Virus record (IMG/VR): IMGVR_UViG_3300003319_000118 | Coordinates: 1-55,635 of that record | From: a virus | Lineage: Duplodnaviria > Caudoviricetes | Strand: one strand, 5' to 3' | Length of the DNA: 55,635 nt | Notes under the pieces: model-generated | Told to the model about the DNA's origin: nothing | Seen by the model: the letters and a program-made list of their open reading frames with translations, nothing else | Databases searched by the model: none | Translations under genes and position numbers: made by a program | Shown here: positions 3,107 through 37,667 of the stretch, one piece after another | Numbering within the stretch: the stretch's first letter is position 1 | Layout: every line of letters starts with the position of its first letter

Positions 3107-3138
3107 TCGCCCCTCCCCCTTACAAGGAGACTGAACCG

Positions 3139-3567
3139 ATGACGAGCCTGATGACCGACGAAGAATTAGAGCCCACGAAGCGTGAGCAAATCCTTTCTCT
3201 CTACGAAGGCGGCACCAAAGACATCGCGGAGATCGTCAAACAGGTCAAAGCGCGTCCTTCCTACGTGGCACAGGTCTTACAGCAGGCCGGACATCTGGAA
3301 GACTACTTCGACCTCTACACAACTACCCACGCCGAGCGCGGCGTTTACTCGCGCTTCTTTCGCAACGTGCTCTCGTTCCGCAACGTGGAGACCGCGCAAG
3401 AGTCTTGCCTGAAACTCTCTCGCCTCTACGACTACTTTGAGCGATTGGGCGACCACGCAGGCCAACACCACGCAACGATTCTCGCCCTGACAGGTAAGAA
3501 CCGTGCGCGATGGTCAGGGAAGATGGACGAATCACAAATCTTTTCCGACTGGCTTGCAACCCATTGA
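3139..3567 (+). CDS. conserved-looking protein with N-terminal HTH, possibly host-derived
   Basis: AAGGAG RBS; KREQILSLY..DIAEIVKQVKARPSYVAQVL HTH-like segment. Confidence 0.7.
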   Translation: MTSLMTDEELEPTKREQILSLYEGGTKDIAEIVKQVKARPSYVAQVLQQAGHLEDYFDLYTTTHAERGVYSRFFRNVLSFRNVETAQESCLKLSRLYDYFERLGDHAGQHHATILALTGKNRARWSGKMDESQIFSDWLATH

Positions 3568-6737: not shown

Positions 6738-7814
6738 CTACTCCCCTTTGGTCTTTGACAGCTCGGTCTTAACCTGCTCCCAGTCTTCCGCGTGGAAACC
6801 GCCCGCGAACTGCTCTTCGATCTGTTCAAGCGTGCGCTTCTCATGTTCCATGTAGTCGAGCAGGAAGGCGATGCGTTCCTTCAACTCTTCTTCTGAGAGT
6901 CGCCGATTCGGGTCAGGGGCTTGGCCGCGGAACTGCTCTTCAGAGAGGGTGCGCGAAGCTTGCGAGCGCTCAGGGCGCGTTTTAGGAGCGAAGAGGCGGG
7001 TCAGGTGTGCGGCGGCAAACTTGGCGGCGTCTCCAACGACATCGGTGTTTAAGCGGGCGCGCCGTATCTCGTCGGCCACAAGCCGCAACGCGGGCTGCCA
7101 GTCGCCGCGCCCAGTCTTTAGTTCCCTTTCGAGTTCGCGCAGGGGTCGAAGCTCATCATCATCTGTAGTAGTTGTCTTAATAGAAGTCTTGGGTTCGTCG
7201 GAAGGTCTTTGAAAATCAACGGCTTGACCCCCACCACCCAACACCAGATTTTGGTTGGTGGGTGGGGCCAGATTTTGGTTGGTAGCTGGTTGGTGGGTGG
7301 TCTGTGGCTGGTGGCTGGTGGGTGGTGCCTCCTCCGGCGTCAGGACTTCGTAGTCTGCGCCGGTGTTGTCGCCGCGGACGTAATGGCGGCGGACAAGGCC
7401 GACACGCTCTAAATGCTTCAAGTGTGCCTTCAGGGTGTTGTGGCTCACGCCCGCCCAAGCCATCACCTCATCGAGCGTCGCCCGCACCGTCCGGCGCGGC
7501 ACGACCGCCCCCCGCGTGCGCTGGTATAGGGCGTCATAGGTCTTCTTACTCTCGCCTTTGAACCGTCCCGCCGGCAGCGCATCCCTGACCACCGAGTTCG
7601 GCACGCGAACGAAATCCCGCGCGGGGGCTATAGGGTGGGTGGTAGGTGGTGGCTGGTCGGTGGCTGGTGGGTGGTGGGTGGTCTGCGCCGCGAGTGCAGG
7701 CCCGACCAAATTAAATATCGGGTGGTCGGGCGGCGGGGTAGGCGACTCAAGCGGCTTGGCCGGCTCGCGCACCGGCAGTTTCGAGGTGCGCGGTTTAGGC
7801 TTGGCGTCCTTCAT
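6738..7814 (-). CDS. putative plasmid-type replication initiator (wHTH)
   Basis: FVRVPNSV, wHTH (WAGVSHNTLKAHLKHLERVGLV); coupled to parA; internal DNA repeats. Confidence 0.65.
   Translation of the reverse strand: MKDAKPKPRTSKLPVREPAKPLESPTPPPDHPIFNLVGPALAAQTTHHPPATDQPPPTTHPIAPARDFVRVPNSVVRDALPAGRFKGESKKTYDALYQRTRGAVVPRRTVRATLDEVMAWAGVSHNTLKAHLKHLERVGLVRRHYVRGDNTGADYEVLTPEEAPPTSHQPQTTHQPATNQNLAPPTNQNLVLGGGGQAVDFQRPSDEPKTSIKTTTTDDDELRPLRELERELKTGRGDWQPALRLVADEIRRARLNTDVVGDAAKFAAAHLTRLFAPKTRPERSQASRTLSEEQFRGQAPDPNRRLSEEELKERIAFLLDYMEHEKRTLEQIEEQFAGGFHAEDWEQVKTELSKTKGE
7244..7327. repeat. iteron-like repeats within rep
   Basis: CCAGATTTTGGTTGGT at 7244 and 7268, followed by a TGGN tetramer run; second TGGN run at about 7633-7683. 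Confidence 0.65.
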
Positions 7815-8614
7815 AATTTGCTTACCACGCGCAGGCCGGGGGCGTTCGCCGCCACGCCGATGCGCTCAAGTATCTCATCGGTCAGTTCCGCGTACTGTAC
7901 CGCGCCGCGGCTGTTGGGTGCGTAATACTGAATCGGTTGATGGACGGAAGGGGATTCTTCGAGTTTGGCCTGTGCGTGTATTACGGTGCCGAAGGCTCTC
8001 TCGCCCGACTTCTCCTTGAACTCCATGAGCGACGCGCCCGAGACGTTCATCCGTTTGTCGAACATCGTGCAGACGGTTCCGAGCACGCGCAGGTTTTCGT
8101 TCAGGCCGCGCGCACCATTGATGGCGTCCATCAGGTCTTCAAAGCCGTTCAGCGCGAAGGGGGCGGCCTTGATGGGAATGATGACGAAATCCGCCGCCGC
8201 CAGCGCCGTGGTGAGCAGGAGCCCCAGATTGGGCGGCGTGTCGATGACGGCGAAGTCGTACCGACCCTGCACGGCCTTCAGCGCGCTCCGCAGTTTCGTG
8301 ATCGAAAGGGGGCTCTCGCGCTCGAACTTGGCGAGGTTGATGTTGGCCGCCACCATGTCGAGCTTCGGCACGGCCGTCGTCAGCCCCTTCTCAACAAGTG
8401 ACGCCGCCGGCTCCGACCCCCCGCCGAGCAGTACGTCGGAGAGCGTGGACGTAACCTGCTCGGGGCTGAAGAAGATTTGGGTGGCGTTGCCTTGCGGGTC
8501 GGCGTCTATCAGGAGGGTCTCGTAGTCGCGGATGGCAAGTTCGGTGCCGACGGTCGCGGCCGTCGTGCTCTTACCCACTCCGCCCTTCTGGTTAGCGACA
8601 GCTATTGTAATCAC
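7811..8614 (-). CDS. parA: ParA/Soj partition ATPase
   Basis: NQKGGVGKST, LLIDADPQGNAT, YDFAVIDTPP. Confidence 0.95.
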   Translation of the reverse strand: MITIAVANQKGGVGKSTTAATVGTELAIRDYETLLIDADPQGNATQIFFSPEQVTSTLSDVLLGGGSEPAASLVEKGLTTAVPKLDMVAANINLAKFERESPLSITKLRSALKAVQGRYDFAVIDTPPNLGLLLTTALAAADFVIIPIKAAPFALNGFEDLMDAINGARGLNENLRVLGTVCTMFDKRMNVSGASLMEFKEKSGERAFGTVIHAQAKLEESPSVHQPIQYYAPNSRGAVQYAELTDEILERIGVAANAPGLRVVSKL

Positions 8615-10864: not shown

Positions 10865-10940
10865 TGCCTCTAAAAGAAAAGTGCCAGACCCGTACAATGG
10901 GTCTAGCACTTCATTTACGGAAACCGTATAATTACGGGTG

Positions 10941-11014
10941 TGCCCCCGCCCAGACTCGAACTGGGAGCCCCAAGCTTAGTAGGCAGGTGCTCTATCCATT
11001 TGAGCTACGGGGGC
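10941..11014 (-). tRNA. atypical tRNA: Arg-like body, ACT anticodon, mismatched anticodon stem (possible pseudo-tRNA)
   Basis: Acceptor GCCCCCG/CGGGGGC; D arm GCTC-AAATGGATA-GAGC; loop CT-ACT-AA; T arm CCCAG-TTCGAGT-CTGGG; no encoded CCA. Confidence 0.8.
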
Positions 11015-11145: not shown

Positions 11146-12279
11146 TTATAAGATTACCTCATTCACTTCCGACGAAAGATTTAACTCGGCTTGCTCTGCC
11201 TCTGCCTGTTCAGGCGTAACAGGTTTTGCGGTGGGTAACGCTCTAGCCTGCTCCGGGACTCTTAAAAAGAGATCGTACTGAATGTGGCCTTTACCGAACA
11301 TCTCCCGCATTTTCTGTTTCAACTCTTCCATGTTGTAACAAGTGCGCGCGATGCCGATGACCATCCAAATGTGTTCGATTAGCTTCTGTAACCCATACTG
11401 GCTTGAAAGCCATTGATGATAGTTCTGTCCGTGGCGGGGCTTCGGCGCGTTCTCCTTTAACCACTGTGCTACGTCAGGATCAAGGTATTCATAGATTAGC
11501 TGCATAACGAGATGCCCCCAATACTTCGGGCGCTGTGTCACGCTGCCTTTCCAATTCGTCAATCGTCCGAACTCAATCCATAAGTCATCGGGGAAAGTTC
11601 TTTCCCACTTACGCATCTCTTCCTCAAGGTATGCCCTCAGCTTGACCTTGAGCGCGTCCTCATCGCGTTTGTATTGATAGCCGGTCGCCTCATCCACAAG
11701 CGCGTCCAAGCCTACTTTCGCGCACGCTACAAGGAACATGCTGGCCTTTATAGCCATCGAAATTTGGCGAGGCGTCAGTTTCACTTCTGGCGGGTTTCTC
11801 TGGCTGGCCTCTAAAGCGGTAACAAGCCCCCGGCAGACTTCGATCAACAAATCAGTAGGCAGCCCCTTTACCTCACGCTGTAACTGCTCCACTTCGGGCA
11901 GGCGAAAAGAGACCATTCTCGCGACTACCAAGTCCTTATCTATGTATGGCTTAAGGTTTTGCGACCGCAAGTATCCTTCCAAGTCACCTTGACCCGGAAA
12001 TCCGCTCAGCATCTCCGTCGTCGCGACCCGCCCGATAACCCTTTGCCCATTGTCGAGCACATAGCAGGGCAGATTTACATCCAGAATATCTAGAAACCCC
12101 TTGTACTTCGCGACGGGTAATCCCCCGTCTTTTGTCTTTGTCGCTTTGCCGGCCTTGGCCCAACGCGCTTGCACGGCTTTTCTGGCTATTTCTTTCCGCT
12201 GTTCGGCGGTCAAGCTCATCGCGCGCGCTTGACCGCCCTTCGACGGGTCAAGAGTGGCAGCCTTTTTCTGTTTGCCCAT
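11146..12279 (-). CDS. P63C domain protein
   Basis: GLDALVDEATGYQ, WERTFPDD, RPKYWG..IYEYL; AGGAGG RBS; TTGACA-17-TACCGT promoter. Confidence 0.88.
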   Translation of the reverse strand: MGKQKKAATLDPSKGGQARAMSLTAEQRKEIARKAVQARWAKAGKATKTKDGGLPVAKYKGFLDILDVNLPCYVLDNGQRVIGRVATTEMLSGFPGQGDLEGYLRSQNLKPYIDKDLVVARMVSFRLPEVEQLQREVKGLPTDLLIEVCRGLVTALEASQRNPPEVKLTPRQISMAIKASMFLVACAKVGLDALVDEATGYQYKRDEDALKVKLRAYLEEEMRKWERTFPDDLWIEFGRLTNWKGSVTQRPKYWGHLVMQLIYEYLDPDVAQWLKENAPKPRHGQNYHQWLSSQYGLQKLIEHIWMVIGIARTCYNMEELKQKMREMFGKGHIQYDLFLRVPEQARALPTAKPVTPEQAEAEQAELNLSSEVNEVIL

Positions 12280-12393
12280 GAGAGCCTCCTTCGCGAAGCA
12301 CGGTAGCACGGAAAAATAGTTGTGTCAATACTTGCTTATTATGTTGACTACTTGCTCAGCAAGTATTACAATGCAGATGTTCTTTGAGAAAGC

Positions 12394-15470: not shown

Positions 15471-18400
15471 CTACAAAGTGGCCTCTGTATATCGCCCGCG
15501 CCCCACTACCGCGCTCTCCTGATAGACCCTGACCTTGACGCTCGACTGCACAGAGCCGAAATCTTCCGTCTGCTGGTTGGCCGTGTAGTTATAGCCGCGC
15601 TTTTTGCCGTACTGGATTCGCGACGGGTCGAGCCCCTGATTGCCTGTGTTAGCGGTAGTCTCAAAGTAGAGGCGCAGTGCTTCGCTCGCGCTGAAACTCG
15701 TCTCAAGGATAGGAACCGGCGCGGCCTGCGATGCATAATTCTTATAGAAGCGCACCACCGACCCCGTACGGTGAATGGAAATACGGTCGCCATCCGCAAT
15801 GTCCACCGCGTAAGAGGCGTTGCCCATCGGCCACGCACGCTTGCCTCCGACCGCTCCCGAGAAAGAGCAGTAGAAGTAGGGATAGCCAGCGTTCTTGTAC
15901 TGGTCGAAAGGGTTGACAATGCCGACAGGACTTACGTGCGCGGCTGGGAGCACGCCCAGATACGAAATAGGCTCATCCGCATTTATCACGAACTCGGCAA
16001 CGAAGTCACCGGCAAACGAATCCATCCCCGTGCCGCGCGCCACGTTGATGCCGTCATCTGTGTGAGACAGCGTATAGTCCGTGCTGATAGTCAGAGTGCC
16101 ACCGGGGTCATCCAATTCCTGCCAGCGGATTGTCTGCTGAATAAGGACGTTCGGATTTCTGACGGAACGCTTGAGCGTTGCCCCGCTATAGACCTCGAAC
16201 ACGTAGACCTCCTGCTCCTCATTGAGTGGCGTTCCCACCCGGTCACGGAGAGAGGCCGCGAATCGTTCGCGCCTGACCCAAGTAACAAGAAGGTCTCCCA
16301 CGCTGTTGCGCTCGCCGCGCAGGTCGGTCGGAGGCAGGGGCTTCAGACTGGTGCCGTCAGCCGTGAACGTCACGGTCGGAGCATCGTCAACCGATTGTCC
16401 CGCAGTTGGACACTTATAATTACGAGCAACGCCGATGTCTTCCAACGGATAAAGCATCGGCTTCACAGCCGAGTTGAGCACGACCACATCCAGCCCTGCG
16501 AGAGACCCAGCCGCAGGGACGCCCGAGCCGAACCTATCCCACAGCAAGCCGCTGACGGTGTAGCGCGATTGGTAGGGGTCGGCCGGGGTTCCCGCGCTGA
16601 CGGTAGTGAACTGACAGACGTACCACCCATCGGCCATGTTTCCGATGGCAAGCAGGTTGAGTTCCGGGTTGGCGTTTACGTCCTCTTCGGTCGCGGATGA
16701 AAGCGACGTGACAGGAAGGAAGTCCACGACGAAGGACGTTGACCTATCCCATACCGTCCGGTCTATCGTCCCGGCGGTGCCTGAGACGACTGCGCCTATC
16801 CCAGCCTCAAGGTCAACGGGGCCCTCTAGTTGATAGGAGCCCGAGCCGATAGGCCGCTCTTTGAACTCGAAGGCCCCGCGCCACGTCCCCGCACCCTGAA
16901 GGCAGGCCGCCCGATAGCGAACCGGCATCGTCCCGCCCCCGAGGTCTTCCGGTCGAAGCGCGGGCAAGTCCATGATGAGCAGCTTCGTTGTGCCGGGATA
17001 CGGGATAACCGGCGGCTCATACCCACTACCGGCCGAGCCCGCGATAGACTGACTATAAACACTCGCCGCGTGCCTGACGCCGCTCATCTCCTGCACGCCC
17101 ATTAACTGCCACGCATGTTCACCCAGACGAGCGGTGTGAGACGCACCCGACGAAGTGTTGATGGTGAACACGTCGCCGGGGTGGAGTTTCTGATACTTGG
17201 GTGGAACTTTGATTTTGAATGTTCGGCTCTCTATGTGGCGCTGGTCGAGGATGGTCGCCGCTAATTGTCTCGCGTGTGAGTGCGTCAGAATCATGGAGAG
17301 GTTTACCGTCTGCTTATCTCCAAACACCCCAGAGCCCACGGTCGCGGATTGCGTGTTCGTGTGATAGTCGAGCAGTGCATCCATGAAGCCCACGCTCAAC
17401 TCGTAAGGCAAGGCGAGCGGGTCGGCGTCCGTAATCTCTACCTCAAAATCATCCCCCTTCTCATCACTCCCGGGCTCCTTCCAGTGCGCCCTTAGCTCGT
17501 CGGCCGAGATAGTCGCCACGCTTGAGCCGTTGCGCAAGACCGCTTTCGTCTCGCCGTCCACTTCAACCATGTCGAACTGGAAACAGGTCATCAGGTCGGC
17601 GAGCCACCGGCCTGCCTCTTCTCTGGACGTGATAAGGAATCCCTCATCCGTGCCGAGCGCGAGCCCCGAAAGTGCCGTGACGTTGACTACCCCAGAGTCC
17701 ACGCTCACGAGCCCATACAAGTCCTGCACAATATCGTCAACGTCGTAGCAACCTGTATCTACTTCGAAGTTGAAGTTGGGCAGGGCAGGCTCTTTCAGTA
17801 CGTAAGAGTCAAAAACGACGTGTGCTAAGCCTCGGTAGGCCGGGACGTTTCCAACACCATGCAGAGCGACGAAAGCCGAGTCCGGGTCTTGTGTCTCCGA
17901 CCCGTTGTAGATTCTGATGTTCGCGTTGCCGCCGGCGACAATCTGCGCCGTGGTTACACCGTCCCCGTCCGGTTCGGGTATCTCGCCGTAACGGGCGATG
18001 GTGTCGTTATCGTCGGCTGCAGACCTGACCGTGTAGGGGTTGATAATCCCGGTCGCTTGTCCTGAGATACGCACACAGGCGCGGTCAACGTACATCGTTG
18101 TTGCATGTGTATTCTTGATCTTGAGTGTGTTGACGAACCCCGTAGTCATCGAAAAAGGGGCCGTCCGGTAGACGTGCCATTCGCCGTCCGTGTTGTGCAA
18201 GGTCTCGGGAAACATCGCCAGAGGCGAGGGCGTCAACTCCACCGTATTCGCGGCAGTAGTTTTATAATAGAACTCGACTACGGCTGTTCCGTTTCCATAG
18301 AGGCCGTTGAATTGGATGCTTCCATTCGTCGGCAGCGTGACGACTTCACCGCCTGAAGCTGAGGCGTCTAGCGTAGTAGTCGCCCCGCCGGCCAGAGTAT

Positions 18401-18980
18401 TACCCGGTCGCTCTGCTTCATAGAAGGCATCTCCTTGAGCGGTGACTGTTGTATCGAAAATGGTCTCAAAATTCTCCCAGATGCGGGTTATCTTGAGGTC
18501 GGGTGAGAGCGCACCTAAAGACTCGCAGACTCCGATATCGAGAGTGGTGGTATAGACATGATTTACTTCGCCGGGCGTTGGCGGCTTCGGAGCACCTTTA
18601 CCACCGGGTCTGCCTTCGGTCTCGTTCGTGGTGTGAATGATGGATGTGGCGTCGAGCAGGAACCCGGCAGCGCGGAACTTGCCATACCCTCTGAGAATAT
18701 GTTCGCCGTACCCATTTGCCTGTAGTCGAATGTCGTCCATCCGACCGCGGTCAACCTTCGGAACTTTGCGACGCTTGGCAATGTAAATGCCGGCTCCGTA
18801 GCTCACCACGCTAAAGGCAGCGGAGATGGCGATGGTGGCTAGTACCGTGCCACTGAAGGGATCAGAGAGATAGACGCCGCGCGGTCGCACAGGGAAGAGG
18901 CCAGCAAAGGCGAGCACCGCAAGGAAACCCCACAGGATGATGCGGTCGCGGAGGGGGCGGTATCTGATGAGTTGAAGCAT
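15471..18980 (-). CDS. tail tip / host-specificity protein (GTA megatron-like) with CBM-like insert
   Basis: YGEHILRGYG, GSETQDPD..VPAYRGLAHVVF, LLIMDLPALR, VTWVRRER, YTANQQTEDFG..VRVYQES; start at 18980 preferred. Confidence 0.88.
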   Translation of the reverse strand: MLQLIRYRPLRDRIILWGFLAVLAFAGLFPVRPRGVYLSDPFSGTVLATIAISAAFSVVSYGAGIYIAKRRKVPKVDRGRMDDIRLQANGYGEHILRGYGKFRAAGFLLDATSIIHTTNETEGRPGGKGAPKPPTPGEVNHVYTTTLDIGVCESLGALSPDLKITRIWENFETIFDTTVTAQGDAFYEAERPGNTLAGGATTTLDASASGGEVVTLPTNGSIQFNGLYGNGTAVVEFYYKTTAANTVELTPSPLAMFPETLHNTDGEWHVYRTAPFSMTTGFVNTLKIKNTHATTMYVDRACVRISGQATGIINPYTVRSAADDNDTIARYGEIPEPDGDGVTTAQIVAGGNANIRIYNGSETQDPDSAFVALHGVGNVPAYRGLAHVVFDSYVLKEPALPNFNFEVDTGCYDVDDIVQDLYGLVSVDSGVVNVTALSGLALGTDEGFLITSREEAGRWLADLMTCFQFDMVEVDGETKAVLRNGSSVATISADELRAHWKEPGSDEKGDDFEVEITDADPLALPYELSVGFMDALLDYHTNTQSATVGSGVFGDKQTVNLSMILTHSHARQLAATILDQRHIESRTFKIKVPPKYQKLHPGDVFTINTSSGASHTARLGEHAWQLMGVQEMSGVRHAASVYSQSIAGSAGSGYEPPVIPYPGTTKLLIMDLPALRPEDLGGGTMPVRYRAACLQGAGTWRGAFEFKERPIGSGSYQLEGPVDLEAGIGAVVSGTAGTIDRTVWDRSTSFVVDFLPVTSLSSATEEDVNANPELNLLAIGNMADGWYVCQFTTVSAGTPADPYQSRYTVSGLLWDRFGSGVPAAGSLAGLDVVVLNSAVKPMLYPLEDIGVARNYKCPTAGQSVDDAPTVTFTADGTSLKPLPPTDLRGERNSVGDLLVTWVRRERFAASLRDRVGTPLNEEQEVYVFEVYSGATLKRSVRNPNVLIQQTIRWQELDDPGGTLTISTDYTLSHTDDGINVARGTGMDSFAGDFVAEFVINADEPISYLGVLPAAHVSPVGIVNPFDQYKNAGYPYFYCSFSGAVGGKRAWPMGNASYAVDIADGDRISIHRTGSVVRFYKNYASQAAPVPILETSFSASEALRLYFETTANTGNQGLDPSRIQYGKKRGYNYTANQQTEDFGSVQSSVKVRVYQESAVVGRGRYTEATL

Positions 18981-18989
18981 TTGCCGGAA

Positions 18990-19045
18990 ACAGAAAAGAG
19001 GCGCGACCGGAGCCACTAATGCGGCTCAACAATCGCGCCTCTGAT
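18990..19045 (-). promoter_or_regulatory. terminator-like leader hairpin before tail tip gene
   Basis: AGAGGCGCGA...TCGCGCCTCT followed by TTTCTGTTT. Confidence 0.6.
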
Positions 19046-19095
19046 TGAGACACTTTGATAAATTGTGCGGGGGCAAAGAGCGCCCCGGTTGCGGG

Positions 19096-19557
19096 TTAGT
19101 TTAGCATAAGCGAGGGTGCTTTCGCGTTGCTTTCTTCCTTGACTACCCGAGGGCTCTTAATATCTTTCGCTTCGACGTAGCGGAGCTTTTCTTTGTCCTG
19201 CTCAAACTCTTCCTTTGTCGCACGAAATAGCTCGAAGCGAGTGAATAGCTTGCCGGGATGTGCGCGGGCTCTGATGTAGTAAACCTCTCCCGCACGCGCA
19301 TCTATCTCAACTCGGTTCTCTCTCTTCTTTCCGCACTTCACTATCACGAGACCGAGAGGAACACGGGCTATGAAATACCGACCCTCATCAAGCGTTGCTA
19401 ACGCTTCGTCTTTTAGTTCTACTTTTGGAGCAGCCTTGCCAAATGTCGTGTGGTAGAAGTTGCGATAGACGTAGATCGTTGCAAACTCTTCGGTTTGAGC
19501 TTGGGCAGTGAAGGCGTAGGCGAAGATGAGCAGCGCGGACGCGAGCAGTTTTTTCAT
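19096..19557 (-). CDS. secreted DUF2846-like protein (moron)
   Basis: Signal peptide AQA; ATIYVYR..LDEGRYF..GEVYYIR. Confidence 0.7.
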   Translation of the reverse strand: MKKLLASALLIFAYAFTAQAQTEEFATIYVYRNFYHTTFGKAAPKVELKDEALATLDEGRYFIARVPLGLVIVKCGKKRENRVEIDARAGEVYYIRARAHPGKLFTRFELFRATKEEFEQDKEKLRYVEAKDIKSPRVVKEESNAKAPSLMLN

Positions 19558-19564
19558 GGCTTAG

Positions 19565-19861
19565 TCAGCGGGTCGGGATTGACAGGCCGACCCCGAGAAT
19601 CACAAGCACGACTATGAGACACACCGTAACGGCGCTAACGCATATCCAACCCAGCACGATTCCGCCCGCGATAGTGGTCGCCCAAGCCCTTCTATCAACC
19701 ACGACAGCGCCCGCGTCGTAGCGCCTGAAGAAACGACCACAGCGAGGGCAGTGTTCGGCATAGGTCGAGCATTGATGATTGCAGTCGGGGCAGGGGGTCA
19801 GGCGAGCGTTAAGGGACGGCAGTTCGCCCGTATCTCTGACTTGTGCAGGCTGAGGCTCCAT
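19565..19861 (-). CDS. zinc-ribbon membrane protein (moron)
   Basis: CPDC..CPRCG plus C-terminal TM. Confidence 0.7.
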   Translation of the reverse strand: MEPQPAQVRDTGELPSLNARLTPCPDCNHQCSTYAEHCPRCGRFFRRYDAGAVVVDRRAWATTIAGGIVLGWICVSAVTVCLIVVLVILGVGLSIPTR

Positions 19862-19890
19862 GCGGTTGGCTTATATCATGTCCCTGAGAC

Positions 19891-19921
19891 AAAAATAAAG
19901 GGCGGAACCGCAGCCCCACCC
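19891..19921 (-). terminator. intrinsic terminator closing the pentamer array
   Basis: GGGTGGGGC-TGCG-GTTCCGCCC then TTTATTTTT. Confidence 0.75.
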
Positions 19922-19925
19922 CTCA

Positions 19926-20293
19926 TCCTCGCCATGCCATGCCGAACCCCGCCCTACCTGACCCCGCCAATCCCAGCCCCGCCTAGCCTTACCAGACCTA
20001 GCCACGCCGCACCTCGCCGGCCACGCCGCGCCGAGCCTAGCCGTGACTGCCGCGCCAAACCTAACCCGACCTTGCCCGGCCCCGCCTCGCCAGACCATGC
20101 CTTGCCTGCCATGCCGAGCCTAACCGCACCAAGCCCCGCCTCCCATGGCTCGCCCCGCCAAGCCTCACCTCGCCTGCCACGCCATGCCTAACCGTGCCCA
20201 GCCAAACCCGGCCAAACCATGCCGCGCCTGCCCTACTGAGCCACATCTCGCCTCGCCCCACCATACCCGGCCTTGCCTCGGCTGCCCTGCCGC
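19926..20293 (-). ncRNA. GGY-NN pentamer array, VIPR-like guide RNA array
   Basis: About 68 units of GG(C/T)+variable dinucleotide, split by seven 4-nt units (mostly GGCA); starts right after a stop codon and ends at a terminator. Confidence 0.85.
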
Positions 20294-20295
20294 GC

Positions 20296-20550
20296 TTACG
20301 GCGCGATGGCCCGCTCTGCCTTCTCCACGTAGCCGGCCGCTCTTTTCACGCGCGGCTTGTCCGTCTTGCCAGCGAGCCTTTCGAGGGCTTCAAGGCTGCG
20401 CCGGGCCGAACCGATGCGCGCCCGCGCGTCCCGCATCGCGGCGGAGTTGCGGCAGCGGAAGGCGGAGCAGGCGGTGTAGTAAAATATGCAGCGCTCCTCA
20501 CGCGCTGCCCGTATACCATGAAACAACCTATCGTAAAAACCTGTCCTCAC
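20296..20550 (-). pseudogene. probable deletion chimera; C-terminal remnant of the array-associated gene
   Basis: Helical C-term AAMRDARARIGSARRSLEALERL abuts the array; 5' part reads through promoter-like DNA. Confidence 0.45.
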
Positions 20551-20789
20551 GAACTAACCCGCGATGCCCCCAAGTGACCCAACACATCTTTAACGTCCGA
20601 CTGATGCGCCGCCAACAACCCAAGCAGCGTTTGCAGGTCAATAGAGTTTGCATCCATTCCACCATCGTGCCGCGCCTTCCACTCAAACTTAATACTTCCG
20701 TCTCTATAGAACGCCACGCGCGCAGCGTGGTTGCGGCATCCTTCGCGCCGACACGGGACAGGTAAGACAAGCGTCGGTGCTTCGTTCAT
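20547..20789 (-). CDS. small Cys/His zinc-finger-like protein
   Basis: CRREGC...RHDGG; similar to 33175..33387. Confidence 0.65.
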   Translation of the reverse strand: MNEAPTLVLPVPCRREGCRNHAARVAFYRDGSIKFEWKARHDGGMDANSIDLQTLLGLLAAHQSDVKDVLGHLGASRVSS

Positions 20790-21250
20790 CCCTCACCCCA
20801 TAAAACCGGGATGCGGTAGCACGCTCTGAATATTTTGATCCAACGGTCGCTGAACGGTTGGACGGAAACCCGGCCGTGCGGGAAGCCGGGTTCGGGTTGG
20901 CTGGATGGATGCAGGATAAGGGGCGGGTCGTCGTCTGTTAGCCGGACGCCGATGTGACGCATACGGAGTGAAGGTCTGAAGAGATAGATGTCTCCCGCGC
21001 GCGCCTCTTCTTCGGTGAGCCTGACTAGATGCGTCTCAAGCGTTGACTCAATCAGCTTGTAATCGTGCGAATCGGGTCTATAGGTGTTCGGGATGTCAAT
21101 GGGAAGCGTGTAGCCTTGCAGCCCGAGCAGATAAGGTACGACGTGCAGGCAGTCTATCCCTCCGTTGAAGGGATCGCGGCCTTGATGCAGGAAGGGCGTG
21201 CCTTCAATGGCCCACGCATCGCGGATAAATTGTTCTCTGCTCAGGCTCAT
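20786..21250 (-). CDS. NlpC/P60 tail-associated peptidase
   Basis: GTPFLHQGR..GIDC..GDIYLF..HIGV. Confidence 0.88.
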   Translation of the reverse strand: MSLSREQFIRDAWAIEGTPFLHQGRDPFNGGIDCLHVVPYLLGLQGYTLPIDIPNTYRPDSHDYKLIESTLETHLVRLTEEEARAGDIYLFRPSLRMRHIGVRLTDDDPPLILHPSSQPEPGFPHGRVSVQPFSDRWIKIFRACYRIPVLWGEG

Positions 21251-22155
21251 CCTTCCACCACACGCATAGCGGCCTCCAAAGGCACATAGGGCATCCCGCG
21301 AAAGTTAAGTCCGTTGTTAAAGGTTCCTACGCAATCTTCCGCGAATCTTTTCCTACACCCTCTTGTCGCCTTCACCGTGTCCGATGTAGTCATCGGATAA
21401 GGAACAGGTAAGTGCAAAGTAAATTCACCGTTTGACGTGTCGTAAGATTTGACACGATAGGCAGGGAACCCGGCGTTACCGCCAGTCTCAATCTCAATCA
21501 ACCCATTGGTGAAGTAGTCGGCACCTTTGCCTGCCAGACTCGATACTCTGAACACGGTCTGACTCGTGACGGTCGTGATGGCTTTGCCGGTGAAGACGTA
21601 GCCGAGCGCTACAAGATTCAGCCCACAGCGCGCATCACCAAACTCTGCGTCGCACAGCGGTGAGGTCTGACGGCCGATCTGTTGCTGTAGCGCGTTATTG
21701 ATGCCCTTCGCCTCAGCCGTGAACGAGAGCGGGACTTGAATCTTGATGTCTGCAAGTCTGCCGCCTGAGACGGGTAGAACCAGCTCGCCCATTGTCGGCG
21801 CTTCGTAGTTGAGGAGAAACGCATCTACTACCGCACCCTGCCATTTCGGTGTGTTAAGTTCCGCCTCGGTGATTCCGGCCGAGGCGAGAAGGGCGGTCAG
21901 TTCAATATTTGAAGCGTGAGCGCCCGCGGCCGTCTCTAACTGTGAAGCAGCCACACCTGTTGAGTTTTTGAACGTCACGCCGGGGTGTCCCGAGAGCCCC
22001 GTGATGTCGAATGAGGCAGTAGTGAAGGCGATGACCGAGCCGACTTGTGGGGTGACTTTCACGCAGACGGCCATCGTCGACGATGCACCGGCGTAATGGT
22101 CATGCAGCGAATTAGCCGTATACGGCCCTGAGTAATTTCTGATAGCTCGGGTCAT
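21247..22155 (-). CDS. baseplate hub protein (DUF2163)
   Basis: CDAEFGDARCG, YFTNG, GCRKRFAEDC..FNNGLNFRGMPYVP. Confidence 0.88.
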   Translation of the reverse strand: MTRAIRNYSGPYTANSLHDHYAGASSTMAVCVKVTPQVGSVIAFTTASFDITGLSGHPGVTFKNSTGVAASQLETAAGAHASNIELTALLASAGITEAELNTPKWQGAVVDAFLLNYEAPTMGELVLPVSGGRLADIKIQVPLSFTAEAKGINNALQQQIGRQTSPLCDAEFGDARCGLNLVALGYVFTGKAITTVTSQTVFRVSSLAGKGADYFTNGLIEIETGGNAGFPAYRVKSYDTSNGEFTLHLPVPYPMTTSDTVKATRGCRKRFAEDCVGTFNNGLNFRGMPYVPLEAAMRVVEG

Positions 22156-22787
22156 GCGTAATCGCGAGTCTCCACTAATCTCACCGGCTCGGTCTGTACC
22201 AACTGACGGCCACCATCAACCCACATAAATAAATCCCCGAAGTCGGACGCCGAAATATCCCACCTCGCGGCGTGGTAGAACTGACCCGTCCACGTCAGCG
22301 CCGTACCCGTGCCGGGGAAGTGTCCCGCCAACCACGTCACCAGCCCCGTCCCGTTGGCGATGGTGTAGTCTGTCCCTCTGACCTTCGCCACGGCATTCAC
22401 GAATAGCGTCTCTGAGTTCGGGACAATCAAATAGGTCTCGCGCGCATAAGCATTACCTGAATCACCTCTGGCTACCTTCAACTGAAACGGCCCCGCCGTG
22501 TTGTCGCCCGTGCCGAAGGCGTCCACGGTGGCCGTGTAGTCTGAATAATCTAAAAAAGGAAAAGAGCGCGTGCGGCCCCTTCGGGCGTTGAGGTGGTTCC
22601 TGAGTGCCTGAAACTGCGCGAGCGTGATGGTTGGGGCGAAAGAAACTTCCCACTCCTTCAAAGCGTCTGCCCACCACGCTGTTCGCGTCTCTGCACCACC
22701 ACCCGCCGCGACAACCGTATCCGACCAGCGGTCAGCGGAGCGGACGCGGGCAGGTGTGACAGGGAGTAGGACATTGTCGAAGGCCAA
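22152..22787 (-). CDS. distal tail protein (DUF2460)
   Basis: GAETRTAWW, ARRGRTRSFPFLDYSDY, FGTGD..FQL. Confidence 0.88.
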   Translation of the reverse strand: MAFDNVLLPVTPARVRSADRWSDTVVAAGGGAETRTAWWADALKEWEVSFAPTITLAQFQALRNHLNARRGRTRSFPFLDYSDYTATVDAFGTGDNTAGPFQLKVARGDSGNAYARETYLIVPNSETLFVNAVAKVRGTDYTIANGTGLVTWLAGHFPGTGTALTWTGQFYHAARWDISASDFGDLFMWVDGGRQLVQTEPVRLVETRDYA

Positions 22788-22789
22788 AA

Positions 22790-25213
22790 TTAATATCCCG
22801 GGTCGAAGCCGAGGGCGCGCTTTGTCTTGCGAGCTATTTGATTCTGTGTCTCACGCGGGACGTTCCCGCCCGGCGCCGTGATATGAAAGTTGATTGTGAC
22901 GCCACCACCCCGCCTCTGCTGCCCCGGCGTCTCTACTGTGACTCTCTCCCCCCGCGTCGCCATAAAGCCCACGGGCGTCTTGTCCGTCCCTCCTGAACCT
23001 CCAACGATGAATGAGCCGCCCGCAGCGAAGCCCGTGAACTTTCCGCCCGCAGTGAAGCCTCCGCCCCCGTGTGCCGGCGCGAGAGTTCCGCCAAGCACAC
23101 CGCCGGCAATATTGAGGATGGCACCCCACACGGCGGACGCCGCGGCTTGGGCAGCCATCTGTTGCATGGCTTGAAGGAAGGCCAGCCCCATGTTGCCGAG
23201 CGCCGACTTCCAGCCATCTTGCAGAGACATGAAGAAGCGGGCGAAGATTTGGTCGCCGTTTTGAGCCATGTCTAAAAGCCCGTTCTGCCACTCTTCGCGC
23301 CAACTCCTCATCCCCTCCCGAATCGCTTGGAACTGCTCGCGGAAGTCGGCCCAGTAATCCACCTGAAAATCTGATAACCCGCGGCGCTTGCCCCCGGTCT
23401 GGCCCATACCGGGTTCTGCTACGCCGTAGCGGGTGACAGTGGAGGGCTTCAAAAGGTCTTCCGAGTTGAAGCCCTTCCCTGCCTCCTTATTGGCGGCTAT
23501 CAGTTTCATGTGGACTTCCAACTGCTCTTTGGCCGCATCGGTGGCGCGTATCTGCGCCTCTCGCATCGCCCACATGGCTTCGCCCAATTCTTGAGCCGAG
23601 CCCGTCAACTTCCCGATGCCGAGGCGCTGGTACTCTGTCGCAACCTGCTGGTCAACTGAGGACTGCGTGAAGCTTTTCAGTTCAAGGTCGCCATCGGCCA
23701 GCGCCCGCGCCAGCGACTCAAGTATCTGTTGCTGCTCGTCAAACGCCTTATTGGTGGCCTCCACGGCCGCCTGCGTGGCTTTGTTTTGCAGTTGGAGATG
23801 AAGGTGAGGCCCAGACCACACCTTCTGCCCCTCGGGTCGTGTGCGCTCATCTCGCACACCGTACCCGGCCTGACGTGCAGCTGCCATGAATCTTTCGATC
23901 TCTTCGACTGACTTGCCGCGCACGCTCACGTCCATCGCACGGCCGTCGTAGTGAGCACTTCCCTTATTATGCTTCCCGCCCAGGAGGGCAGTGACGGTGA
24001 AGTCCCATTCCTTAGCGAAGGCTTTGAGCTTGTCGAGTTCATCCTTCCGCGCCTTCTGGCCTTCCTTGCCGGGGGTGAAGAAGTCAGACACGTCCCTTTT
24101 AGGCGCGACGGCCGCCGCATTCTTGCTCCTCAGTCGTGCCATTTCGTTGGCAAGGTCTTGTGAGTTACCGATAATATCCCCGGCGCGTGACTGCGCACCC
24201 ATCCCGCGGATTTGACGGTAGAGTTGAATGAGGGGATTAGTCTCCGCGTTCAGTTCCCATAGCCAGCCTACACTCTGGCGGAAGCCCTTCCCGAACTCCG
24301 AATCGTAAGCCTCCCGCAAACCACGTAACACGTCAGCGACCTCTGCTCCCCATTCCCGCCAGCGCCCCGCATTGACTTGGAGGGCATCGGTCATCTCGGC
24401 CATGCCGCCGGTAATCTCGGGGACGAACTCAATGCCGAAGTTGCGACCCGCGATAGTTGCCGCGTTTGAGAGCGCGTCCAACTGGTCGCCAAACTCATCG
24501 GCCGCGTTGGCGGCCTCCGTGCTCATCACGCGCCCCGCGCGCTCAGACTCGGCTATCACTCCATTGAGGTCGCCCTTCGTATCCGCGAGAAAGACCGACA
24601 GTTCCTTGAAGCCCTTGCCCATCACCTTCGAGCCTGCGGCGTTACGTTGGCCCGCCGACTCCATTTGGCCGAGGGACTTGATGACCGTGCGTAGACTCCC
24701 GTCCGTATCGTTTAGCGCCGCCCTCACGTCCTTGATGCCCAGAGCGGCGAACGCCCTTTGCAGCTCTTTATTGCCGGATGCAGCTTCGCCTAGATTCTTC
24801 TGAAGGAAGACGGCGGCGCGTGCAAGCGCGTCCATGTCCGTGCCGGATTGTTTTAGTTGGAGTTGTAAGCCTGAGAAGGTTTCGACTGAGACACCGGTCT
24901 GTAAAGATAGGTCGTGGAACTTAGACCCCGCTTCGGCCGCCCCCTTCGCCATGTCAAAGAAGAAGCCGCCGATGTCTTTCGCGATGTCTAGCCCCGCCTT
25001 GATGTTAGCGAGATTTGAGCCGATGGATTGGAAGGTGCCTTGGAGTGAGGAGAAGCCGCTTTTTATCTTGTCGCCAAAGGAAAGTTTCTCGCCGGTCTTC
25101 TCGGCCTCACGAGCTACGTCTTTTAGTTTATCCTCGACACGCTTCGCCCCGCGCTCGAACCCTGCGGTATCGGCGCCGAACGAGACCATGAGTTCTTCGA
25201 GACTGACCGCCAC
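22790..25213 (-). CDS. tape measure protein with embedded peptidase-like domain
   Basis: 807 aa, Ala/Gly-rich helical; GKHNKGSAHYDGRAMD..PHLH; C-term FAAGGSF. Confidence 0.9.
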   Translation of the reverse strand: MAVSLEELMVSFGADTAGFERGAKRVEDKLKDVAREAEKTGEKLSFGDKIKSGFSSLQGTFQSIGSNLANIKAGLDIAKDIGGFFFDMAKGAAEAGSKFHDLSLQTGVSVETFSGLQLQLKQSGTDMDALARAAVFLQKNLGEAASGNKELQRAFAALGIKDVRAALNDTDGSLRTVIKSLGQMESAGQRNAAGSKVMGKGFKELSVFLADTKGDLNGVIAESERAGRVMSTEAANAADEFGDQLDALSNAATIAGRNFGIEFVPEITGGMAEMTDALQVNAGRWREWGAEVADVLRGLREAYDSEFGKGFRQSVGWLWELNAETNPLIQLYRQIRGMGAQSRAGDIIGNSQDLANEMARLRSKNAAAVAPKRDVSDFFTPGKEGQKARKDELDKLKAFAKEWDFTVTALLGGKHNKGSAHYDGRAMDVSVRGKSVEEIERFMAAARQAGYGVRDERTRPEGQKVWSGPHLHLQLQNKATQAAVEATNKAFDEQQQILESLARALADGDLELKSFTQSSVDQQVATEYQRLGIGKLTGSAQELGEAMWAMREAQIRATDAAKEQLEVHMKLIAANKEAGKGFNSEDLLKPSTVTRYGVAEPGMGQTGGKRRGLSDFQVDYWADFREQFQAIREGMRSWREEWQNGLLDMAQNGDQIFARFFMSLQDGWKSALGNMGLAFLQAMQQMAAQAAASAVWGAILNIAGGVLGGTLAPAHGGGGFTAGGKFTGFAAGGSFIVGGSGGTDKTPVGFMATRGERVTVETPGQQRRGGGVTINFHITAPGGNVPRETQNQIARKTKRALGFDPGY

Positions 25214-30460: not shown

Positions 30461-31510
30461 TTACCTGACGCCCGAGTCAACGACAAACACCTTCTGCTCA
30501 TTCGGCACCGTGATAGGGTTGACCTGCACGGAGACCTTCAGCTCCTTGCCTTCGTTCGACTCGGAGTAGTAGACCGTCTGCCCGTTCTCGTCAATCCCGC
30601 TGTTCGGAAGTGACTCCACCAAGTCCTGCGCGCGGGTGACAGGCGCGAACGCTGTGCGACCCACGCGCCCCCCCGAGGGGATCGCCGCGACGCGACCCGC
30701 GGGCCAGACGACTGCCGAGGCCGTCACAATCCCGCCGTCGGTGAAGTCGTCCACGGTGTCATCGAAGGTGATGAAGTCGAAGGGACGGCCCAACTCCTGC
30801 GAGATGCGGTCGGCGGCCTGCGAGACCGTGATGGGGCTGTTGTTAATCTCGGGGCCGTCGGCGACAATCTCCCGCATGGTGAGCGTGTCCATCAAAGCGC
30901 CTTCGGTCGCGCCGATGTAGTTGGGCGCGTCCTGCATGAAAGCGATGAACTCGTCCCACGCGTTGACCCCGGGGTCGTCCCACGCCGTGCCGGCCGTCGT
31001 AATACGTGCGGAGTCGAACCCGAAACTGGCGACGTAGGACTCACCCGTCTGTGGGTTCATCACCGTCACCGTCCCCAGAGCCCAGGCGGTAAAGGCGTCC
31101 ACTTCGATGCGCCGGTAGTTGGCCTCGGTGATATGCCGAACCTTGCGCGGGATGGAGCGGCCGATGATTTCGTTGACTCGCTGAGCATTTGAGCCCGCAC
31201 GCTCGCGCAACTTCTGCATCTCGTACTCACCCCACTTGAAGTAGCCTTCAACGGGCAGGATGACGATGTTGCGGAAGTCTGGCGTCTTGTCGGGAATGAG
31301 CCGACCGGGGGCATTCCACGCGCGGCGTCCCGAGACGGGACGGAAGTCAAGCGTGGTCACTTCGTCCAGGTCAACGGAGTCCACGTCTTCGCGCGGGAAG
31401 AACAGGTCCCACTTGAGCATCCCTTGATTGGTCGGGCTGATGGTCTGCGCGAGAACCGTGAGAGCGGCCTCAGACAGCTCCTCAACCACGGGTATGAGTG
31501 ATCGCGGCAT
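30461..31510 (-). CDS. major capsid protein (lambda gpE-like)
   Basis: 349 aa; LFFPREDV, ANYRRIE; follows scaffold and decoration genes. Confidence 0.85.
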   Translation of the reverse strand: MPRSLIPVVEELSEAALTVLAQTISPTNQGMLKWDLFFPREDVDSVDLDEVTTLDFRPVSGRRAWNAPGRLIPDKTPDFRNIVILPVEGYFKWGEYEMQKLRERAGSNAQRVNEIIGRSIPRKVRHITEANYRRIEVDAFTAWALGTVTVMNPQTGESYVASFGFDSARITTAGTAWDDPGVNAWDEFIAFMQDAPNYIGATEGALMDTLTMREIVADGPEINNSPITVSQAADRISQELGRPFDFITFDDTVDDFTDGGIVTASAVVWPAGRVAAIPSGGRVGRTAFAPVTRAQDLVESLPNSGIDENGQTVYYSESNEGKELKVSVQVNPITVPNEQKVFVVDSGVR

Positions 31511-35733: not shown

Positions 35734-37203
35734 CTACACCCTGCGCCCGCCGAGGCGCGAGAAGAGATTGCGCTCCAAATCGGAAACACTCGTAACCGGC
35801 AATTCAAGGACGCGAGCGGCAGCCATCGAAAGCGCCACGGCCAAATCTATCTTTAGCGAGGCGGAGCGCTTCACTATGCGCAACTTCCTCTCTTCCCCTA
35901 CCTTTTTGTCGGCGTTGTCGAGATGCTTTCTCAGAAGCGGGTCGCTGCCGTGACTGATACGCTTCTGAGTTATCAGGTCGAGCAGGTTCTTGTCCGCGGT
36001 CAGTCTCTCTGCCCCCTGATGGAATGGGGCGGTTGGGACTATGCCCCGCTTATCCAACCCGGTCATCATTTGGTGAAGCTGATACGGGTCATAGGCGATT
36101 TGCAGGACGTTGAAGTCTTTACAGAACTTCACCAACTCCTCTTCAATCTCGTCAAAGTCAAGCGGCTGCCCTTTGGGCTCCCATGCGCGCACATAGCGAA
36201 CCGCCACCCTGCTCGAATCTGCCGGATGTAGGGAGACCCCGACAACGCCGAACGTGTCTCCCGTGACGGCCGCATCTGCCGCAAGCGCGAGTGGTGTGCG
36301 AGTATCGAGCGCGGGTAGGTCTTCAGAGCAGGCGTCCCACCACAGGATTGATTCGAGGAAGCGGGTCGCGTCTTCAATATCCTCCCACTCGGCGTCCATC
36401 AGGACGCGCGCTTCGGATTCAGTGAGAACGGCGCGGCGATCCTGCTCATACCCTTGCGAGAGATTCGCGGCGTTGTCGGCGAGTCTCAACGTGACCGTGA
36501 GAGACTTGCTTTTAAATTCGGCGTTCGCATCCGGCCCGTCCGCCTCCAGCGGCCCGAAAAACTCAAATAGCCAGTGCTTGCGCGGCGTGGTAGTCAGGTA
36601 GAGTTGTGGAGGCTCGCCCTCGGGGCCTTCGAGCCGGACACGGCCGGCCAGCACCTTCAAGGCATCGGGCGTCTTGTGGCGCCGAGCTTCGTCAAAGTAA
36701 GCGAAATGGACGTTTGGCCCTTCCCACGCACCCGGCTCTTCAATGCCCCCGCAGATAAGTTCCGCGCCGTTGACGAACGTCAGAGTAAAAGGTTTGGTAG
36801 GCTCCCAGCCGAAGCGCGCACGATACTGCTGCTCTTTGATGACCTGTTCCCACGGGCACCACCGGCGAAATTCTTTCCACAGAGACTTTTTAAAGTGCTC
36901 GAAGTCGGGGCTGACCATGATGCCCGACATACCCCGTCGGAGTCTGTTCAGCGTCTTAACGATACCGGCAACCGACTTGCCCGCGCCCTCACCGCCTTTA
37001 GCCAGCATGTACTTGGGCGTGTCGGAAAAGACGAACAGCCGCTCATCTTCGTGGTGCGGCGTGTAGGGTTTGTGCGTCGCTGCGTTGACGTAGACCCCTA
37101 GCCACTCGCCCGCAGGCTCATCACCTGGAACAATGTCCACGTCCTCGGCCGTCTTAAGCCTTTGGACTGCTATCCGATCCGCCACCGGCCACAGATGGCT
37201 CAT
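35734..37203 (-). CDS. terL: terminase large subunit
   Basis: GGEGAGKS Walker A, AYFDEA Walker B, LTTTP, AADAAVTGD, IAYDPYQ, KIDLAVALSMA. Confidence 0.92.
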   Translation of the reverse strand: MSHLWPVADRIAVQRLKTAEDVDIVPGDEPAGEWLGVYVNAATHKPYTPHHEDERLFVFSDTPKYMLAKGGEGAGKSVAGIVKTLNRLRRGMSGIMVSPDFEHFKKSLWKEFRRWCPWEQVIKEQQYRARFGWEPTKPFTLTFVNGAELICGGIEEPGAWEGPNVHFAYFDEARRHKTPDALKVLAGRVRLEGPEGEPPQLYLTTTPRKHWLFEFFGPLEADGPDANAEFKSKSLTVTLRLADNAANLSQGYEQDRRAVLTESEARVLMDAEWEDIEDATRFLESILWWDACSEDLPALDTRTPLALAADAAVTGDTFGVVGVSLHPADSSRVAVRYVRAWEPKGQPLDFDEIEEELVKFCKDFNVLQIAYDPYQLHQMMTGLDKRGIVPTAPFHQGAERLTADKNLLDLITQKRISHGSDPLLRKHLDNADKKVGEERKLRIVKRSASLKIDLAVALSMAAARVLELPVTSVSDLERNLFSRLGGRRV

Positions 37204-37627
37204 CCGAGCCGAAGGCGGCAAGAAGTTTGGCGATGTCAAGTTTCACCCCATCCGTTTCGCTCTGCGCGAACTTCAGCCAATCCAGCAAGTCTTTTTCCGT
37301 TTCGATGCCGGTCTCGTCAATCTTTTGTCGCGCCACCCGCATGACGATGCGGAGACGTGCTGCGCGCGATGCAATATCAACCATCAAAGAGAGCCGGTCT
37401 ACTTCCTCCGCGAATTCCGTGTCGCTCACCCAGCGCTGCACCGTGCGCTTCGCTATGCTGTGTTCGTCGGCAACCGCCTGTTGCGAGTAACCTTGCGCGA
37501 GCGAAATCGCCACGGCGGATTTTTTCGGCGTCCACTCGTACGGCGTCTTTTTGGCGACAGCGGCCCCCAAATCGCTGTTCACCGTCCGCCCTTCTACTCC
37601 CTTCTCTTTTTTAACTCTTACCGCCAA
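37154..37627 (-). CDS. terS: terminase small subunit (HTH)
   Basis: LAQGYSQQAVADEHSIAKRTVQRW..EF; overlaps terL start. Confidence 0.78.
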   Translation of the reverse strand: MAVRVKKEKGVEGRTVNSDLGAAVAKKTPYEWTPKKSAVAISLAQGYSQQAVADEHSIAKRTVQRWVSDTEFAEEVDRLSLMVDIASRAARLRIVMRVARQKIDETGIETEKDLLDWLKFAQSETDGVKLDIAKLLAAFGSDEPSVAGGGSDSSPKA

Positions 37628-37667
37628 AAGCTATTCTCCCCCTTCAGGTACGAGAGACGCGCGCCGC

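Follow-up and report, generated by a model that had tools for sequence, protein, structure and literature searches.

VIPR was first described in preprints of 2026 (10.64898/2026.04.26.720920; PMC13142463), and the other VIPR preprints comprise a structural companion (10.64898/2026.04.26.720927), a study of solo vrRNAs (10.64898/2026.10.15.759431) and a language-model survey (10.64898/2026.10.21.760802); among the literature matches listed, there were no papers on VIPR beyond these 2026 preprints. According to the accessible text of PMC13142463, Vipr is a ~20-kDa RAMP protein that polymerises on vrRNAs of 9-16 YNNGG units, with the GGY bases held by the protein, the NN bases pairing with DNA, and one base skipped per unit. 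Most natural targets lie in coding sequence, where the skipped base is the wobble base, and seven VIPR types are distinguished (PMC13142463). That text bears out the features that the preliminary description of the locus studied here had attributed to VIPR, namely a RAMP protein called Vipr, vrRNAs built of GGY and NN, and the skipping of one target base per unit.

The published architectures include 'staggered arrays with overlapping vrRNAs', and the legend to fig. S18 of the first preprint refers to 'staggered vrRNA arrays' in which '1 nt overlapping positions' give rise to the vrRNAs (10.64898/2026.04.26.720920). In the accessible text, staggered arrays are the sole architecture without confirmation by small-RNA sequencing (PMC13142463), and the accessible part of 10.64898/2026.04.26.720920 reports no self-targets for natural guides. 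The array analysed here has the same continuous GGY-NN tract and the same one-base guide overlap (GGCA followed by GGC) as the staggered arrays of that legend, but it differs from VIPR staggered arrays in having no vipr or vap gene alongside, in lying within a tail-gene module, and in containing some degenerate junctions and units. Other GGCA-punctuated arrays have segments of about 8-12 units, like segments S1, S2, and S5 here, and 64 of 80 are accompanied by a Vipr homologue.

The type II VIPR system of Escherichia phage SUSP1 (Vipr, vap1, and four vrRNAs; 36pp) uses the same pentamer code and skip rule and is likewise carried by a phage. However, its vrRNAs are separate RNAs of ~100 nt, each with an invariant 3' tail, whereas here a hairpin follows the last segment only, and SUSP1 has a Vipr partner, while the present array has no protein partner on its contig. 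Solo vrRNAs, which occur on satellites and vipr-null SUSP1-like phages, are described in the available part of 10.64898/2026.10.15.759431 as functional in an E. coli satellite system. Those of F5 satellites and of VIPR-null SUSP1-family phages resemble the present array in being guides on a vipr-less mobile element, for which the use of another element's Vipr is proposed, and in having genes of competing elements as targets (10.64898/2026.10.15.759431). The solo cases presented there are from phages or satellites of Enterobacteriaceae and comprise one or two type II vrRNAs, each with a tail that forms a pseudoknot, left at the site of a vipr-vap1 deletion (10.64898/2026.10.15.759431). In contrast, the present locus is a seven-segment, tail-less staggered array; the phage that carries it is unrelated to these, comes from a root metagenome, and has a record rated 64% complete, and no deletion scar was recognised at the array.

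VIPR is a known system, and what is added here is a staggered array without an adjacent vipr gene, its site in a tail operon, and a target motif common to unrelated phages. We consider it probable that the tract is a VIPR-type staggered vrRNA array in an island between tail genes, that its segment S5 is aimed at a motif of ParB-like proteins, and that Vipr acts on it in trans.

Organisation of the array and its surroundings

The window, that is, the whole stretch of DNA analysed, is a linear contig of 55,635 bases without end repeats, rated 64% complete by CheckV. The array occupies 19929..20291 on the minus strand and consists of 67 five-base and 7 four-base units; the limits given earlier, 19926-20293, enclose the same tract plus 2 and 3 flanking bases. 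In a hand parse checked letter for letter against the window, 62 of the 67 five-base units were canonical GGY-NN and five were non-canonical. When the entire window was searched for runs of at least four consecutive GG(C/T)NN units, all eight runs found lay at 19929-20277 on the minus strand, with no further run on either strand in the rest of the 55,635 bases; shuffled windows (n = 50) held a mean of 0.26 such runs and a maximum of 2. Among the 54 canonical units counted by an automatic parser, the NN dinucleotides were of 15 types, and the Y base was C 36 times and T 18 times, in agreement with the earlier view of a fixed scaffold carrying variable dinucleotides.

Read 5' to 3' on the minus strand, the segments measure 2, 9, 10, 6, 6, 11, 5, and 18 units. 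The two leading units (20291-20282) are followed by a degenerate 4-mer and then by S1 (20233..20277), whose 9 units, 7 of them canonical, have the dinucleotides AA CG AT GG GA GA GT TC AG. After a GGCA at 20232-20229 come the 10 canonical units of S2 (20179..20228), a GGCA at 20178-20175, the 6 units of S3 (20174-20145), a GGGA at 20144-20141, the 6 units of S4 (20140-20111), and a GGCA at 20110-20107. S5 (20052..20106) has 11 canonical units with the dinucleotides AA AT CT GA GG CG AA CG TA TT GC and is followed by a GGCA at 20051-20048. The 5 units of S6 (20023..20047), the first of which is the non-canonical GTCAC, are separated by a GGCC at 20022-20019 from S7 (19929..20018), which has 18 units, with the non-canonical GGATT as unit 10. 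Every unit of S2, S4, and S5 is canonical. Relative to the preliminary description, which had counted about 68 pentamers, the difference of one is confined to the degenerate 5' end; its seven four-base units were recovered, including the single GGGA and GGCC, but four rather than five are clear GGCA units, the remaining one being degenerate at the 5' end, and its list of segment lengths holds except that the second segment has 9 units instead of 10.

Since a GGCAG and a GGCNN that share one G would read as a four-base GGCA unit, the register-shifting units of the array (4 GGCA, 1 GGGA, and 1 GGCC) agree with the one-nucleotide guide overlap of published staggered arrays. Segments of 9, 10, and 11 units with GGY and hypervariable NN fit the 9-16 units per guide of vrRNAs, whereas those of 5, 6, 6, and 18 units fall outside this range. 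S3 and S4, short for guides, are possibly one decayed guide, and S7 perhaps represents two guides of 9 and 8 units with a decayed boundary. Partial decay of the array is suggested by its degenerate units, by the two junctions that read GGGA and GGCC, and by the segment lengths of 5, 6, 6, and 18 units.

No reading frame crosses the array. Only three minus-strand frames overlap it, each in a different frame and 52-75 codons long, consistent with the earlier argument that the five-base period is incompatible with coding. As had been noted, the array begins just past a stop codon (TAA, 20298-20296) and ends in a hairpin and U-tract. This intrinsic-terminator-like element (19891..19922, minus strand) has its stem core at ~19922-19899 and its U-run at ~19899-19891; a 71-nt fold at the array 3' end has an energy of -31.9 kcal/mol (z = -3.3 versus shuffles), and in the minimum-energy fold the terminator stem reaches into the last array units, to 19933. 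There are no tails between segments, only this terminal hairpin. A structured 3' tail after each tract is a hallmark of type II and not part of the staggered architecture, and the tails after 45 other staggered arrays were diverse.

The TAA just 5' of the array ends an 84-codon GTG frame, which is doubtful as a gene because a second terminator-like hairpin with a T-rich tail (20488..20508, minus strand) lies inside it. Since this hairpin would end the transcript of the tail genes, the array may have a promoter of its own within 20294-20487, although no sigma-70-like promoter site was found on the minus strand upstream of the array.

The array lies in an accessory island of ~1.8 kb, inserted in the genome of an uncultured, siphovirus-like phage between an NlpC/P60-like tail gene (20786..21250, minus strand) and a gene for an 1181-codon host-specificity tail protein (Phage-tail_3, Rcc01698_C; 15471..19016, minus strand). 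In order, the island consists of an 80-codon ORF (20547..20789), ~250 bases with the upstream hairpin, the array, a 98-codon ORF with a zinc-ribbon-like N-terminus and a hydrophobic C-terminus (19565..19861), and a 153-codon ORF with a signal-peptide-like N-terminus and a DUF2846 match (19096..19557), all on the minus strand. Neither the 98-codon nor the 153-codon ORF encodes a Vipr. None of the flanking ORFs (80, 84, 98, and 153 codons) had a homologue beside other arrays, with blastp matches limited to translations of arrays.

Almost all genes of the phage are on the minus strand and run from replication and early functions through packaging and head to tail. Upstream of the NlpC/P60-like gene lie genes for a baseplate hub (21247-22155), a DUF2460 protein (22152-22787), and the tape measure (22790-25213), followed at greater distance by the major capsid protein (30461-31510), the terminase (35734-37239), and a primase-helicase (42622-44361), all on the minus strand; a tail tube gene and three DNA methyltransferases are also present. 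Cultured phages offer no more than distant relatives (<30% identity) of the terminase large subunit and the tail protein, those nearest to the tail protein being in Caulobacter, Rhodobacter, and Roseobacter phages, and the baseplate hub protein has relatives only at ~30% identity, which are gene-transfer-agent-like. Distant relatives with the same tail-gene order carry no arrays and no insert between the tail genes. Six metagenomic proteins are homologous to the NlpC/P60-like protein (57-82% identity), and searches with this protein and the hub protein found no close relative of the phage; an apparent NlpC/P60 match in the viral contig collection was spurious, comprising 10 residues on an unrelated contig (L001). 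A search for sequencing runs that contain the array stretch gave one DNA run, from a root metagenome, and no RNA run.

Arrays with the same punctuation and the search for a Vipr gene

A blastn comparison of window positions 19000-22200 with GenBank phages gave matches through the array only, in 27 records, all of Mycobacterium phages and all at 67-69% identity. This level is what the common GGY scaffold would produce, since 60% fixed positions plus chance agreement come to about 70%. These phages have actinobacterial hosts and are unrelated to the array phage; the likeness is one of scaffold only. Mycobacterium phage Donkeykong and the 26 other records have the same array junctions (in Donkeykong, ...ATGGCAGGC...), with a Vipr gene directly downstream there and none here.

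In Donkeykong (record positions 36870-37969), the annotated 'hypothetical protein' gp48 overlaps the staggered GGC-NN array and is followed by gp49, a Vipr homologue whose annotated TTG start falls within the array. The gp48 coding sequence over the array looks like a mis-annotation. gp49 carries a GVGDWRPS G-loop; its family numbers at least 1,900 proteins and is represented by a profile (A2) of 25 sequences. Searched against the PDB, this profile gave a single match, to the 'SUSP1 Vipr protein' (36pp_D, E = 0.002), in an alignment that spans the thumb and the GVGDWRP G-loop and keeps the equivalents of SUSP1 Vipr residues H17, R138, and D177-W178-R179. An AlphaFold model of a family member (mean pLDDT 83.7) matched Csm3/Cas7-type RAMPs of type III and VII CRISPR complexes, with a best E of 1.4e-6 and 96 structure chains at E <= 0.001. 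By sequence and modelled fold, the protein family linked to GGCA-punctuated arrays is thus identified as Vipr.

We then collected arrays with the same punctuation using a pattern of four GGYNN units, GGCA, and four GGYNN units, so that no locus without a GGCA could enter the set. Viral contigs held the pattern in at least 128 stretches, and 80 loci were analysed. An ORF on the same strand within 2 kb of the array matched the A2 profile at 60 of these loci, and at 64 after two rounds of profile iteration. The 16 loci without a match include six that lack the upstream flank and three that lack the downstream flank because the contig ends, and one (L086) with a Vipr match just beyond the 2-kb flank. 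Across 148 distinct arrays, the register-shifting unit was GGCA 373 times and any other type at most 3 times, a preponderance to be read with the GGCA-based selection of the loci in mind. The 273 internal segments of these arrays peaked at 8-10 units and typically had 7-12. Unrelated arrays had the scaffold alone in common (64-72% identity except for a few short matches), and no guide was common to them.

Two of the loci stand apart. L056, on a record of 55,862 bases with direct terminal repeats (G007), has a Vipr-like ORF at 2615-3298 (minus strand) whose G-loop is GIGDNR, with no tryptophan, and a 148-codon ORF between it and the array is perhaps an accessory (vap) gene. L028, on a record of 95,777 bases rated 100% complete (G004), has a very long staggered array of ~135 units, with no Vipr match within 2 kb by the iterated profile or across the record by the A2 profile; this complete genome may thus carry a further solo array.

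In the 55.6-kb contig analysed here, no vipr gene was found, either beside the array, as in a complete VIPR system, or elsewhere. A tblastn search of the window with gp49 gave no match, the A2 profile reached a best E of 1 against the 490 stop-to-stop ORFs of the window, the iterated Vipr profile did no better than E = 0.6, for a frame of 62 residues, and hhalign against the 203 window ORFs of 90-400 aa reached a best probability of 2.9%. A six-frame Vipr search of the record returned no matches, while recovering all three Vipr-positive records used as a positive control. Read-through frames of 18900-21300 contained no vipr remnant, and no real ORF of the window contained the Vipr G-loop or N-terminal motif. 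The A2 profile is not exhaustive in that both it and the motif search missed the L056 Vipr, and a Vipr of other VIPR types could escape these profiles. A vipr gene adjacent to the array can be excluded, however, and since neither the gene nor a remnant was found in a contig rated 64% complete, the array is a solo array as far as this record goes.

The chief alternative is that the phage has a complete VIPR system with vipr in the missing part of its genome, in which case the array would not be solo. The linear, 64%-complete record without end repeats leaves room for such a gene, and the Vipr match outside the 2-kb flank at L086 indicates that some distance from the array is possible. Yet vipr lay within 2 kb on the same strand at 64 of 80 loci, and both flanks here extend over >19 kb of tail genes and small unrelated ORFs with no remnant, so we regard a complete system as unlikely, though by no means far-fetched.

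Targets of the array segments

[quoted passage not shown] The S5 pattern (22 specified bases) had three exact matches in the viral contig collection, which represent two distinct sequences (L012, identical to L014, and L013) between which blastn found no similarity. Each match lies in frame in a ParB-like gene; the two genes are homologous (43% identity over 171 aa; PHROG 4715/21315), and one of them is fused to a DNA methyltransferase. The target site is located about 40-60 codons into the gene, where S5 covers the codons of K-I-L-D-G-R-N-R-Y-L-A, the only stretch that is identical in both proteins. Every base skipped by S5 is a codon third position, and at 6 of these 10 bases the two phage targets differ. 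The match spans the first to the last unit of S5 and does not extend into neighbouring units.

When the two whole target contigs were compared with S5, the match was 22/22, whereas shuffled guides reached at most 17-18 and skip rules of 0, 2, and 3 bases gave 15-16. S5 read backwards had no matches in the viral contig collection. The two target contigs have the ParB-like gene and one other gene in common and none in common with the array phage; the target contigs G002 and G003 contained neither an array nor a Vipr match, and the window contained no homologue of the S5 target domain.

With up to 2 mismatches allowed, S5 had two matches in 401 Alphaproteobacteria genomes versus one for the backwards control, and hence there is no enrichment in these genomes. 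Both of the matches nevertheless lie in homologous ParB-like genes, in frame, at K-I-L-D-G-R-N-R-Y-R-A, with 20/22 bases agreeing. Across the four S5 target sequences, all 10 skipped bases vary, and the NN bases are invariant at 20 of 22 positions. Because S5 has the sense of the coding strand, it would not pair with the mRNA, which fits DNA targeting. Judged by this match, at least one guide of the array, S5, appears to be in working order.

S5 is the one segment of seven for which we found a target with a 1-nt skip that falls on third codon positions. The S2 pattern (20 specified bases) had no exact matches in the viral and metagenome contig collections, and S7a, the first 9 units of S7 (18 specified bases), had none in the viral contig collection. 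S1, S3, S4, and S6 were compared with the window, the target contigs, and the array loci only; in the two target contigs and in 81 array loci, S1-S4, S6, and S7 did not rise above the null, and no segment had a self-target within the window above the level of shuffled guides.

The proposal that each segment is one guide and that GGCA marks the boundary gained support on three counts, namely the one-nucleotide overlap stated in the fig. S18 legend (10.64898/2026.04.26.720920), the 373 GGCA units in 148 arrays, and the limits of the S5 match. This reading is supported with the caveats that no vipr gene is on the contig, that only one of seven segments has a target, and that four segments, with 5, 6, 6, and 18 units, have atypical lengths. 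At this locus, the boundaries of a guide are thus set by where the match to its target starts and stops, and the natural target is a conserved protein motif that appears to be read through a wobble-skipping code by an array detached from any Vipr gene.

These data also bear on whether the tract is a decaying relic, that is, a former VIPR array left after the loss of vipr, transcribed or not, and now functionless. Such a relic would account for the absence of vipr from the contig, for the five units that depart from the canonical form, the two junctions other than GGCA, and the atypical lengths of segments, and for the six of seven segments without a target. However, GGY is kept in 62 of 67 units, S2, S4, and S5 are fully canonical, and the array terminator is intact; moreover, S5 matches a conserved foreign gene at 22/22, in contrast with the absence of matches for three control patterns (S5 backwards, S2, and S7a), and in the E. 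coli satellite system, according to the available part of the solo-vrRNA preprint, such vrRNAs do function (10.64898/2026.10.15.759431). We therefore judge a functionless relic to be rather improbable. That the tract is no guide array at all, and instead a G-rich structural element such as a G-quadruplex or a low-complexity coding region, is scarcely credible, for although a GG that recurs at 5-base intervals might in principle give rise to two-tetrad quadruplexes and similar arrays are annotated as hypothetical proteins (for example, Donkeykong gp48), the four-base units break all reading frames (the longest on the minus strand being 75 codons), the third base is C or T only and the junctions are GGCA as in Vipr-linked arrays, and a structural role would not explain the codon-phased S5 match.

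Possible function of the array and other features of the phage

If the tract is a staggered vrRNA array served by Vipr in trans, it would be transcribed on the minus strand, with transcription stopping at the hairpin and U-run at 19922-19891. The transcript would be cut at the one-base-overlap junctions, GGCA(G), to yield guides mostly of 9-11 units, and each guide would be coated by a filament of Vipr, a Cas7-like RAMP, that holds GGY and presents the NN pairs. The complex would then bind double-stranded DNA, reading it as NN-x-NN-x, and block transcription there. Guide S5 would be aimed at K-I-L-D-G-R-N-R-Y-L-A of ParB-like or ParB-methyltransferase genes in other phages, with the skip on the wobble base. 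Since Vipr is encoded neither beside the array nor anywhere in the 55.6 kb, it would have to be supplied in trans. Its source would be the portion of the phage genome outside this contig or else another element, co-resident or rival, as has been published for solo vrRNAs. For this array, every step from transcription and processing to loading and silencing is inferred.

More tentatively, we propose that a phage lacking any Vipr maintains a multi-guide staggered array as a moron in its tail operon and thereby reprograms the Vipr of resident or rival elements, with at least one guide directed at the first two positions of each codon of an invariant protein motif; we see this as an open possibility rather than the expected outcome. 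If it is true, a single guide, S5, would silence a ParB-like gene across unrelated phages that have no detectable DNA similarity, making it a broad-spectrum, motif-directed guide, and the 'guns for hire' role of solo vrRNAs would extend beyond the type II of Enterobacteriaceae to the staggered class. The locus suggests that solo guide arrays are not limited to SUSP1-like coliphages and that guides can be aimed at conservation at the protein level, and so reach unrelated competitors. It also bears on annotation, in that such arrays are still called hypothetical proteins in deposited phage genomes.

Several other features of the record were observed. With no integrase recognised in it, maintenance of the phage as a plasmid is possible. 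A gene for a ParA-type ATPase (7811-8614, minus strand) adjoins one for a 358-codon HTH protein (6738-7814, minus strand) that has weak similarity to replication initiators and in which two TGG-rich tandem repeats (7276-7327 and 7633-7681) encode Pro/Thr-rich stretches. A TnpB-like gene of 369 codons (748-1857, minus strand) matches OrfB_IS605, Cas12f1-like TNB, and HTH_OrfB_IS605 and is a second gene of an RNA-guided-nuclease family on the same phage record.

An Rfam search found a tRNA alone. This sole tRNA gene (10940-11014, minus strand) encodes tRNA-Ser, with the anticodon ACT as printed by ARAGORN, and sits between the left arm and a P63C-domain gene (11146-12309). Finally, a 221-codon ORF (45941-46606, minus strand) that matches no family has an acidic C-terminal tail, ...DDEEIPF, which may be of the kind seen on single-stranded-DNA-binding proteins.
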